A stretch of DNA of 64,000 nucleotides from an uncultured Chlamydiae bacterium (GCA_963713615.1 CAVQMM010000001.1:736001-800000); one strand, 5' to 3'; shown: positions 3 through 10,898, counted from the first letter of the stretch. Numbers and translations: made by a program. The notes: generated by a model not told the origin, from the letters alone.

Positions 3-2918
3 CTTGAAGAGATAGCAACCCGATCTGTGGATAAAGATGAGCCTATAGTCGCTAAACAGATTTATAATAAACTAGGCACCACCTATCTGGAATCCTTTCC
101 AGCCCTTCTGCTCGCGTTGGCCTTGGGCATGGGCGATATGACTGAGGTGGATGCGACTCAACGATATGACTCTATAGCTACCCGACTGACTGATCGAGAA
201 AAGGCCTTTTTGGCGCCTCTTTTTGAAATTCGTGGAATGGACAAGCTTTCCCATGCCACATTGGCCTCTATCAAGTCCTTGAAGGGCTTTACTCCTCAAG
301 AGGTCTTTGCCCTAGGCCTAAAATATGTCGGCTTTGATATGGTCGATCAGGGACAGGTACTTATTGATGCCTATGCTAGTGGCCTTGCGGTTCCTCCTGA
401 AGAGGTTAAGGCAGCTACCGTAATATTGAAAATCGGTAAAGGGGATGTACAACCTGTTGTCGATTGGATGATCAGTGAGAAAGAAATCTCTGAAGCGATC
501 CTCAAGGGCTTTTTCTCCATCGCCTTTGAAAAAAAATACGCTATTATTGCTCAGATGTCTGCAGATCGGTTGCTAAAACATTGGCCATCGGAGCTCTACC
601 GTTCCTATGTAGCAGCTGCACAGGCTATTGGCGACCATGAAGAAGAAGGGCTAAAGACATTACGTGAGATGTTTGCAGCAGGAGAACCTGTAGCAGGCCT
701 TTACGTGGATGCCCTTGCCTATCGCGAACGCAACCAGCCCAATCTTGAACCTGAGCTTGTTTATGTGGTGACCGAGGAAGCGCATAACCCCACCGTCTCT
801 CCCCACTTGCTTCGTCGCCTCGGGTACATGCTTATCAATGAGCATCTCATGGGATTAGCCTCTCCACTCTTTGAACGACTTGCCGAACATGGTTCATTAG
901 TCAGCGATGACGTTCAAGCTCTGTTATATACCTGGGGAACACATCCCACACCTGTCCAGCAGGAATGGATGGTAAAGCGCGCCGCTGCAGCTCCCTCCAA
1001 GGAAGAAATTAAATGGCTTACCTATTTTGCTGAGGCCGATAAACCCCAGCTGGTGCTGGAGACGATTCATAGGTCTCCAGAGGGCAATCGTGGAGATAGA
1101 GATATTCTAGACATGCATTTTCAAGCCCTTGTCACCTTAAAGTACAAGGAAGAGGCCACCAAACTGCTTGCCTCTATGCTAGAGGATGAGACGGATATCA
1201 AGCGTCTTAAGTCTCTGGGAGCTATTGCCCAAGGCGGTGATCTGACTGAAGGCGCTGAGTCCATTTTTAAACGTATCTTGGAAGTAAATCCCGATGACCT
1301 CGATACACTAAAAACGATGGGCATCTTGGCGTATGGACGTGGTGACGTCATCACCGCGCGCGAATATTTGGAGCACTATCTCGATCTTGCCGAAGGCGAT
1401 TACCTTGTCAATTTCTATTATGGTGAAGTCCTAGAGTATTATGAGCGACGTTGTGACGCTTGGTGCTTTTATGAGGTTGCTCTTGAGCAGGTAGAGAGCC
1501 TTCAGACGCCTACTTTTGATGAAAACCTCATGCGGGCCCACTTATTGGTTCGTCTAGAGTACTTTCAATCGGCGATCGACTGGTACTTTCGTCTTATTGA
1601 TGAGCATCCGAAGCAAATCGGCCTGTATAACGACCTAGCAGACCTTTATATCGATCGCGAGTGCTACTATAAGGCGGGTGCCATCATCGCTCTCGGGCTA
1701 CAAGAGGCTGAAGATCCGGAGTTACCACCGGGAGAGCGTACTGCTGTAGTGCTTCTTCTCACGCAAAAGGTACGCTTGCTGAAAGAGAACAATTGCATCT
1801 GTGAGGCCTTGGCCTTAGCGGCCGAACTTGTTGAAGAATACCCCGAAAACTCTGAGGTGCTTGAGGTAGCTGCCGATCTTCAAGTACGCATTGGAAATTG
1901 GGGCGAAGCGCTGGATCTTCTTGATTCCGCCATCGATGTTGCCTCTGAGCGCGCCATCTTGTGGGATGAACGCGATACTGTCCTAGTCGATCACCAGCCC
2001 TACTGGATTGCTGGTGTGGAGTATCGTGTTAGTGGTGGTCAGCGTGAAACTCTGGCAAGATACCACTTCGAGAATGATATTCTCCCTTGTTACCGCTTCT
2101 ATACCGATCTAGAACTAGACTATGGCTCGATCACAGATTTTGCTCTTTTTCCATCGGGAAATATCGTCTTGCTCAAGCGTGCTCGAGAGCGTGGAGCTTT
2201 TGGCGTAATTCGTCAGTGGGGATGCGGTAGTACTGTTCAGGGCGCTTTACTGCTGTCCCAGGGCATTGTTGGTGTTGGTGTCAAGGCCATTAAGCTCGAT
2301 TCTTATGGCTCCTGGGTTGTAGAGGGAGCCTATCATGAACCGTGTTGGGATCTGGTGCAATCCACCTTCCAGGAAGGCGCTCGCAATCGTATTCAAGGAA
2401 CAAGGATCTGGCACCCACTTCAACGTACTGAGTTAGTTGGAACTCTCGGATATAACCAATATAACCTGATGGCTAATGATCGTATGGCAACTTCTTACCT
2501 GCTCCAAGCGGGTTGGGGCTACCACCTTTCCCCCAATAATTGTTGGGCACGTGGTATAGGATATGGCACAGATCTTGCCCTTGCTTGTGCTTTGGATAAA
2601 GAGCATGTCTTATCTCAGGTAACGATCATTGGCGATGATGGCACTCCCTTTCAACCTCTGGGACTTGTCAGCAGAGAAATTTATACGGGTAGTTTGCTTC
2701 TCACAAGGAGATTTCACGATTGGCTATCCGTTGATGGCAGCGTAGGAATGTCCTACGACCGCGTAGCAGGCCGAGGTGGACCTGAGGGATCATTCGGCCT
2801 TACAGTAGGAAGAAAGTGCGGTTTTCAAGGACGTCTTTTGTACACACATACTCTTAGCACCACAGGGTTGGTTACTGCAGAGGATGCCATTAGATTCGAT
2901 CTTCGTAGCCCATTGTAA
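3..2918 (+). CDS. pelB: PelB-like TPR scaffold with C-terminal outer-membrane beta-barrel (5' truncated by window edge)
   Basis: Frame is open from the window start. Long helical TPR-like region is followed by alternating polar/aromatic strand-like segments. Lies directly upstream of pelD-E-F-G. Confidence 0.65.
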   Translation, partial: LEEIATRSVDKDEPIVAKQIYNKLGTTYLESFPALLLALALGMGDMTEVDATQRYDSIATRLTDREKAFLAPLFEIRGMDKLSHATLASIKSLKGFTPQEVFALGLKYVGFDMVDQGQVLIDAYASGLAVPPEEVKAATVILKIGKGDVQPVVDWMISEKEISEAILKGFFSIAFEKKYAIIAQMSADRLLKHWPSELYRSYVAAAQAIGDHEEEGLKTLREMFAAGEPVAGLYVDALAYRERNQPNLEPELVYVVTEEAHNPTVSPHLLRRLGYMLINEHLMGLASPLFERLAEHGSLVSDDVQALLYTWGTHPTPVQQEWMVKRAAAAPSKEEIKWLTYFAEADKPQLVLETIHRSPEGNRGDRDILDMHFQALVTLKYKEEATKLLASMLEDETDIKRLKSLGAIAQGGDLTEGAESIFKRILEVNPDDLDTLKTMGILAYGRGDVITAREYLEHYLDLAEGDYLVNFYYGEVLEYYERRCDAWCFYEVALEQVESLQTPTFDENLMRAHLLVRLEYFQSAIDWYFRLIDEHPKQIGLYNDLADLYIDRECYYKAGAIIALGLQEAEDPELPPGERTAVVLLLTQKVRLLKENNCICEALALAAELVEEYPENSEVLEVAADLQVRIGNWGEALDLLDSAIDVASERAILWDERDTVLVDHQPYWIAGVEYRVSGGQRETLARYHFENDILPCYRFYTDLELDYGSITDFALFPSGNIVLLKRARERGAFGVIRQWGCGSTVQGALLLSQGIVGVGVKAIKLDSYGSWVVEGAYHEPCWDLVQSTFQEGARNRIQGTRIWHPLQRTELVGTLGYNQYNLMANDRMATSYLLQAGWGYHLSPNNCWARGIGYGTDLALACALDKEHVLSQVTIIGDDGTPFQPLGLVSREIYTGSLLLTRRFHDWLSVDGSVGMSYDRVAGRGGPEGSFGLTVGRKCGFQGRLLYTHTLSTTGLVTAEDAIRFDLRSPL

Positions 2919-2936
2919 CAAGAGGGAGAGCCTTTA

Positions 2937-10466: not shown

Positions 10467-10502
10467 TAAAACCATAGCTTAATTTAATCAGGAGTACATC
10501 AG

Positions 10503-10898
10503 ATGACTAAGATTAGTGCTAAATTTTCTGGAAAGAATGTGCTGATTGTTGAGGACTATTTTATCAATCAAGAGATCGTTCAGGATATGCTCGAACTCAT
10601 GGATTGCCACGTAGAAATAGCTGAAGATGGCAAAGAGGCGATGACCAAGGTCTCGGACAAGAAATACGATCTAATACTCATGGATATTCAATTGCCAGAG
10701 AAAGATGGCTTCGAGGTGACCCGTGAGATTAGAAAGACAGAGCCAGCCAGTGCTAGAACACCTATTGTAGCGTTGACCGCCAATGCCATGGCTGGCGATC
10801 GCGAGAAATGCTTAGAGGCCGGCATGGATGATTATATTGCGAAACCTATAGACATTACCAAGCTAGAAAGCATCTTGAAGAAATACTTGGGCAGCTAG
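10503..10898 (+). CDS. Stand-alone receiver domain of hybrid-kinase type
   Basis: LIVED; ILMDIQLP; PIVALTANAM.GDREKCLEAGMDDYIAKP. Confidence 0.92.
   Translation: MTKISAKFSGKNVLIVEDYFINQEIVQDMLELMDCHVEIAEDGKEAMTKVSDKKYDLILMDIQLPEKDGFEVTREIRKTEPASARTPIVALTANAMAGDREKCLEAGMDDYIAKPIDITKLESILKKYLGS

Follow-up and report, generated by a model that had tools for sequence, protein, structure and literature searches.

A Pel-type operon with no detectable PelC and no c-di-GMP site in PelD, adjoining a kinase-receiver pair, in an uncultured chlamydia

INTRODUCTION

Free-living and extracellular bacteria are the known makers of the biofilm polymer Pel, and one review has its control by cyclic di-GMP (c-di-GMP) conserved except in streptococci. 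The reference system is pelABCDEFG of Pseudomonas aeruginosa (structures 4DN0/4EU0 for PelD, 9H80 for PelBC, and 9CGY/5TCB for PelA), in which PelC is reported to be essential and a hallmark of the Gram-negative Pel system (PMC12141448) and in which the PelD substitutions R367A and D370A abolish c-di-GMP binding and pellicles (PMC2170427). Here, we describe a pel operon of an uncultured Chlamydiae bacterium that reaches into a 64,000-nucleotide stretch of its genome (G000:C1:736001-800000; "the window") and is followed there by the genes for a histidine kinase and a single-domain receiver. The locus shares with P. aeruginosa the PelB barrel, the PelD fold, PelE, PelF, PelG, and both PelA activities, in a common gene order of B-D-E-F-G. 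Unlike in P. aeruginosa, pelA is split into two genes, no pelC was found, PelD is without the RxxD motif, the genome gave no GGDEF, EAL, or PilZ match, a kinase and a receiver are appended, and the host is of an intracellular type.

Three other systems invite comparison. The streptococcal pelDEA(DA)FG operon, with a class IV PelD (PMC7890745, PMC12345266), resembles the chlamydial locus in that an organism with no diguanylate cyclases makes Pel independently of c-di-GMP, the hydrolase and deacetylase are separate, and extra genes after pelG have been proposed as regulators. It differs in belonging to a monoderm without PelB and in its PelD, from which the entire GGDEF domain has been lost and to which an SDR-like domain has been added; its extra genes do not form a kinase-receiver pair. 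The chlamydial PelD falls outside class IV, which is defined by the absence of a GGDEF domain and by a degenerate SDR domain. The pel locus of Azospirillum thermophilum, among the closest plasmid-borne relatives by PelF (~51%), also has a split hydrolase and deacetylase and a lone receiver gene upstream but keeps RxxD and a PelC-like lipoprotein and carries pelB in two genes. Finally, in the EpsW-EpsZ system of Myxococcus xanthus, a single-domain response regulator in its phosphorylated form (EpsW~P) switches on exopolysaccharide synthesis post-translationally (PMC12802240). That system acts in a Wzx/Wzy pathway, on a phosphoglycosyl transferase and with Dif chemosensory input, whereas the target of the chlamydial receiver is only putative. 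No report of Pel in chlamydiae was found in the open literature, mainly in titles and the openings of abstracts, with subscription journals outside the search, and "chlamyd" is absent from the main text of an operon survey (PMC7112194) whose supplements may list such genomes.

RESULTS

The Pel genes

The Pel cluster begins ~4.1 kb 5' of the window, in upstream DNA that we also read, and the whole cluster is encoded on the plus strand, as are the kinase and receiver. It opens with a glycoside hydrolase gene of 282 amino acids (aa) (G000:C1:731881-732729; P. aeruginosa PelA structure 5tcb, E = 3.3e-16) and a CE4 deacetylase gene of 800 aa (G000:C1:732605-735007; P. aeruginosa PelA structure 9cgy, E = 3.8e-49), which keeps the IDGD and HxxSH motifs when aligned to P. 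aeruginosa PelA. Both PelA activities are present, in two genes that match the halves of PelA, and hydrolase, deacetylase, and pelB follow one another with overlapping start and stop codons. pelB (G000:C1:735004-738918) starts 996 bp before the window; its 5' end is open there, and positions 3 to 2918 encode the last 971 of 1304 aa, with matches to TPR families and a C-terminal barrel. The C terminus was modeled as a 16-strand outer membrane barrel (predicted local distance difference test [pLDDT] score, 89.5), whose best Foldseek match was P. aeruginosa PelB (9h80_M; template modeling score, 0.75; E = 2.5e-12).

pelD (2937-4322, 461 aa) encodes membrane helices, a coiled coil, a GAF domain (GAF_3), and a degenerate GGDEF-like domain. 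Sequence and profile searches with PelD were weak: no Pel hidden Markov model (HMM) matched it, phmmer found nothing in the PDB, and a profile of PelD homologues reached PelD at E = 0.75 only and also matched GGDEF proteins. A fold search was therefore needed, and in this search the PelD model (pLDDT, 88.8) had P. aeruginosa PelD structures at eight of the nine top ranks (4eu0, 4dmz, 4etz, and 4dn0 as top matches, E ~2e-8). Neither the family scan nor the model gave an SDR domain, and the GGDEF-like domain is retained. pelE (4319-5383, 354 aa) encodes two membrane helices by hydropathy and TPR repeats, and a profile of its homologues matched the genes at the pelE position in three canonical operons (E = 4e-15 to 5e-9). 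pelF (5396-6919, 507 aa) encodes a GT4 glycosyltransferase (NF038011, 456 bits against a cut-off of 100; DUF3492 plus GT1), and pelG (7330-8721, 463 aa) encodes an exporter with ~10 hydrophobic segments (PF16933, 372 bits against a cut-off of 29). The cluster itself has no epimerase gene; elsewhere in the genome, 24 PF01370 matches are candidates for a UDP-N-acetylgalactosamine (UDP-GalNAc) epimerase.

All seven pel open reading frames (ORFs) are full length with catalytic motifs, and every Pel part except PelC is present. The spacer between pelB and pelD is only 18 bp and so leaves no room there for pelC. Of the 44,168 six-frame segments of the genome, none matched a profile built from four lipoproteins at the PelC position with an E value below 1, and a single Azospirillum query, run without a positive control, found nothing in 30 of 30 genomes; a very divergent PelC substitute could still be present. 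The original prediction had placed pelB-like, pelD, pelE, pelF, and pelG genes, the kinase, and the receiver in the window, with no pelC between pelB and pelD. Each ORF lies where it had been placed, on the plus strand, the five pel genes match Pel by HMM, profile, or predicted fold, and the missing pelC extends to the rest of the genome as far as the profile can detect it. The prediction also pointed upstream for pelA and pelC, and just upstream the split pelA was present and no pelC was found. Judged by its sequence, the operon is a real, intact Pel-type system that appears to lack two defining features of canonical Gram-negative systems, PelC and the c-di-GMP site.

The c-di-GMP site of PelD and c-di-GMP enzymes

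At the position of the RxxD motif in the I-site alignment, PelD of this genome has QPLG (Q394-P-L-G397), while RxxD is kept in four of four plasmid-borne proteobacterial reference PelDs. The genome is 99.1% complete, and searches of it for GGDEF, EAL, and PilZ found nothing, with controls positive in 8, 6, and 5 of 14 genomes, respectively; it encodes one diadenylate cyclase. The premise that Pel would be controlled here by c-di-GMP through PelD, taken over in the original prediction from the known systems, was not upheld by these results. PelD has retained its GGDEF-like domain and lost the c-di-GMP site.

We then looked across 401 genomes sampled from the phylum, in 30 of which (~7%) PelG scored above the cut-off. 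The I-site could be scored in 27 of these (all except G062, G234, and G239): RxxD was kept in 3, lost in 20, and missing together with the whole domain in 4. GGDEF genes occurred in 146 of the 401 genomes, many as ~300-aa proteins of variable score. All three genomes with an RxxD-bearing PelD carried strong GGDEF genes (best E = 1e-37 to 1e-50), while a GGDEF match was found in only 2 of the 20 genomes that had lost RxxD (weak in G014, intact in G372). In the pel clade to which our genome belongs, 19 of 19 genomes were without RxxD and 17 of 19 without a GGDEF match. EAL matches were found in three of the 30 pelG-positive genomes (G147, G324, and G372). Among 17 PelDs of the large clade, mean identity was 19.7% in the GGDEF-like domain versus 43.9% in the GAF domain.

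The genome also has two complete chemosensory clusters (L152 3741-15060 and L153 1614-10725, at G000:C1 ~283.7-295 kb and 665.6-674.7 kb), whose layout resembles that of Wsp. At their ends are a receiver-kinase divided between two ORFs that overlap and a receiver-SpoIIE phosphatase, and neither ends in a diguanylate cyclase, which is consistent with the loss of c-di-GMP.

The kinase-receiver pair

The stop codon of pelG (TGA, 8719-8721) and the start codon of the kinase gene (ATG, 8721-8723) share one base, giving the TGATG overlap (8719-8723) that had been predicted. The kinase (8721-10466, plus strand, 581 aa; PAS, PAS, HisKA, and HATPase, with phospho-His 353) has two N-terminal membrane helices and a hybrid-type (BarA/ArcB-like) core without a receiver of its own. 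The receiver gene (10503-10898, plus strand, 131 aa) encodes PF00072 only, with Asp61 and Lys114 intact; D61, K114, and P115 were invariant in 29 homologues. As a receiver-only protein with an intact phospho-site, it shares one of two features of the EpsW type and may share the other, binding a biosynthetic protein directly. We rejected the possibility that a sequencing error had split one hybrid kinase, as the kinase ends in two successive stops and the 29 homologues have the receiver as a gene of its own. Histidine phosphotransfer (Hpt) domains gave three matches in this genome, all inside two CheA-type kinases; no stand-alone Hpt was found, and hence no ordinary relay leads onward.

Receiver homologues (E <= 1e-22) were found in 39 of the 401 chlamydial genomes and stood alone in 35, of which 20 had pelG and 15 did not. 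The family forms one clade (support, 97/97), apart from the nine other receiver domains of this genome that were tested. The lone receiver of A. thermophilum fell outside it, on a long branch, and its orthology to the chlamydial receiver was not supported. The family adjoined pel in 14 of the 30 pelG-positive genomes, from seven family codes, in one of three layouts: kinase and receiver 3' of pelG in nine genomes (in G167 across a contig break), the receiver alone 3' of pelG in two, and kinase and receiver upstream of the hydrolase in three. The predicted synteny of pelG, kinase, and receiver thus recurs in related chlamydiae. Within the clade of our genome, the family was present in 19 of 19 genomes and beside pel in 14 of 19, and it was present in none of the three RxxD genomes. 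What sets this system apart is a kinase-receiver pair that goes with the loss of c-di-GMP control, for the most part inside a single clade. In family f6, the receiver was found in four of five pelG-positive versus 2 of 41 pelG-negative genomes; kin are not independent, and Fisher tests of the co-occurrence of receiver and pel overstate its significance for that reason.

In the kinase tree, the kinases linked to pel occupy two parts. In G177, a second kinase-receiver pair (L142 4818-9704) overlaps a stand-alone, I-site-less pelD paralogue with no other pel genes. In G074, which has neither RxxD nor a GGDEF match, an unrelated lone receiver overlaps the start of pelD; the locus (L046 4938-15370) represents a separate pel type made up of a TPR gene, the lone receiver, pelD, two HEAT-repeat genes, pelF, and pelG. 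The genes of unassigned function after pelG in family f5, considered as Pel accessories, were rejected as such on being identified as transketolase and uroporphyrinogen decarboxylase.

Spread and phylogeny in the phylum

The other 29 chlamydial loci had the same gene order, broken by contig ends or rearrangement. In family f4, whose genomes are mostly of 1.0 to 1.3 Mb, there was one weak pelG match in 30. The PelC-less, I-site-less layout was kept over eight family codes at 21 to 75% protein identity, which argues for long purifying selection.

In a tree of PelF and PelG (37 rows, quick search; G379, with a fused pelF, and G239, missing pelF, were left out), the chlamydial sequences formed two clades, one of 18 genomes and one of 9, within a group that also contains alphaproteobacteria, with G074 apart. 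Two gammaproteobacterial pelDEFG loci without RxxD, from a Francisellaceae member (L072) and another gammaproteobacterium (L073), nested in the larger chlamydial clade; transfer is possible, and we claim no donor or direction. In G147, a Spherulin-4 hydrolase gene lies directly 3' of pelG in an RxxD-bearing system (L057 2843-4315).

A palindromic repeat between pelF and pelG

The gap between pelF and pelG is 410 bp and contains a palindromic repeat found across the genome. It resembles repetitive extragenic palindromic and bacterial interspersed mosaic elements (REP/BIME) and spans 6926-7237 (no strand assigned), with arms at 6926-7040 and 7123-7237 that are 87% complementary and an RNA fold z score of -17.7. 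The family has 164 core copies, which make up 66 intergenic clusters and are for the most part arranged in inverted pairs, with two copies inside long ORFs, and the copy here is missing from the pelF-pelG junction of same-genus relatives. The repeat is not Pel specific; it could affect the pelG-kinase-receiver mRNA. A 126-aa ORF at 6916-7296 was rejected as a gene, having no Pfam match and overlying the repeat. One repeat cluster flanks an ORF (G000:C1:1921694-1922134) with a GxxExxY motif.

Genome and surroundings

The window belongs to a 3.97-Mb genome in three contigs, and the G+C content of the locus (46 to 49%) is close to that of the genome (46.8%). The suggestion that the genome is chlamydial was sound: same-genus genomes are labeled Chlamydiales or Chlamydiae, and a Chlamydiales 16S primer motif has an exact match. 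An FHIPEP gene of type III secretion is present, along with 12 nucleotide-transporter matches, and we infer an intracellular lifestyle from its chlamydial affiliation. Promoter and terminator scans of the locus gave results at chance level. One RNA run (X1, containing 0.09 of words) yielded identical contigs of 150 to 210 nucleotides at a depth of 2 to 4 in pelB, pelD, pelF, and pelG and across the kinase-receiver junction. Cover was equally sparse over the neighboring 20 kb, so that DNA carry-over is indistinguishable from RNA, and these contigs were not taken to show expression, co-transcription, or habitat.

The DNA upstream of the cluster encodes, on the opposite strand, a SET-domain protein and a divergent triosephosphate-isomerase-like protein, the product of one of three such genes (L002 6096-7787). 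Downstream in the window are genes for an 833-aa protein with MORN repeats, after which comes an IS66 remnant (11682-15177), and for a 2160-aa protein with a nucleotide-binding domain like that of phosphoenolpyruvate synthase and C-terminal HEAT repeats (29465-35947); four FadL/PorV-like outer membrane barrel genes in tandem (44030-49452); and carAB, pyrB, pyrI, and dihydroorotase-like genes (56701-63667) for de novo pyrimidine synthesis, which this genome has in addition to its nucleotide-transporter matches.

DISCUSSION

Our results make it very probable that this is a functional Pel operon independent of c-di-GMP. That its output is under the control of the kinase-receiver pair, as the gene context suggests, is our preferred reading, though the odds seem to us evenly balanced, and we hold it as a doubtful idea that the receiver binds the Pel complex directly. 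By analogy with Pseudomonas, PelF would polymerize an alpha-1,4-GalNAc chain at the PelDEFG inner membrane complex, its periplasmic processing would fall to the separate deacetylase and hydrolase, and its export, without a PelC ring, to the PelB barrel. The product may be a cationic coat or adhesive matrix, for which the extracellular infectious form is the most plausible bearer. On a cytoplasmic cue, detected via its PAS domains, the kinase would phosphorylate His353, from which the phosphate would pass to Asp61 of the receiver, which in turn would act by binding the synthase complex. With no output domain in the receiver and Hpt domains only in CheA-type kinases, the simplest route would have the receiver act directly on a target protein, for which EpsW~P offers a precedent. 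The likelier docking site would be PelE, PelF, or the conserved GAF or membrane part of PelD; the former I-site is less likely, its GGDEF-like domain being too eroded to be a good candidate. We tentatively propose, as something possible rather than likely, that in a broad clade of environmental chlamydiae a PelC-less machine makes a Pel-like coat, that a phosphorylated single-domain receiver, by binding PelDEFG directly, replaced c-di-GMP as the allosteric activator of the complex, and that such a swap took place at least twice in the phylum.

Several observations weigh against our preferred reading, and some of them suit an alternative that we consider doubtful but serious, namely that Pel is made without c-di-GMP, constitutively or under developmental transcription, and that the pair, a chlamydial module of older date and different function, merely became linked to pel and was passed on with it. 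The I-site-less systems form a single PelF-PelG clade (Shimodaira-Hasegawa approximate likelihood ratio test, 98), so that the co-occurrence of the receiver with RxxD loss may be one inherited event, and one clade can account for the linkage; the pel clade is probably one evolutionary event, leaving G074 as the only independent case of a receiver with an I-site-less pel. The pair lies away from pel in 5 of the 19 clade genomes, all of family f5, and the 15 receiver-bearing genomes without pelG often have it beside tsaD, an epimerase or SDR gene, or other genes. In G044, the receiver lies at what is apparently the pel site of G284, with pelDEFG gone, judging from gene sizes and order. G372 has an intact GGEEF gene (on a contig of ~1 kb) and EAL genes, and G014 gave a weak GGDEF match. 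Streptococcus intermedius, moreover, makes Pel with a GGDEF-less PelD (PMC12345266). An incidental linkage is harder to reconcile with its persistence at both ends of the cluster, with pel-linked kinases from two parts of the kinase tree, with the kinase-receiver-pelD paralogue unit of G177 and the unrelated receiver joined into the G074 operon, or with the distribution in family f6, subject to the relatedness of its genomes.

Direct action of the receiver on the synthase would also be wrong if the pair were a split hybrid kinase whose receiver serves as a relay intermediate or phosphate sink toward another regulator, for instance of pel transcription. Kinase and receiver both score best against hybrid kinases (BarA, TorS, and ArcB), and 13 of 29 related kinases (this one excluded) carry a degenerate-receiver-like tail of 100 to 165 aa, which in G064 matches PF00072; given that the only Hpt matches lie in CheA-type proteins and that each of the 29 aligned homologues of the receiver has its own gene, we consider such a relay unlikely. 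A nonfunctional relic is more improbable still. PelC, which was not found, and the I-site, which is lost, are both essential in P. aeruginosa (PMC12141448, PMC2170427), some chlamydial loci are broken or fragmentary, with decay in G234, G239, G249, and G379, and here a long-hairpin repeat separates pelF from pelG, but the full-length ORFs with their catalytic motifs and the long-kept layout speak for selection. Nor do we give much credence to continued nucleotide gating of PelD, whether via the GAF domain or with a different messenger, for instance cyclic di-AMP, the least probable of these readings: GAF is the best-kept cytoplasmic domain of PelD and the genome has a diadenylate cyclase, but we identified no motif for ligand binding, the linkage of the receiver would be left unexplained, and we know of no precedent for a ligand of the PelD GAF domain.

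What is new here concerns regulation: a Pel system without the c-di-GMP switch and, beside pel in many related chlamydiae, a kinase-receiver pair that can be named as a concrete candidate regulator. The clade offers a natural experiment on the effect of c-di-GMP on PelDEFG and on how PelB works without PelC. That ~7% of the chlamydial genomes sampled have an intact, selected Pel machine points, in bacteria of an intracellular type, to a coat or adhesive matrix not described so far, which may serve survival, clumping, or attachment between hosts.

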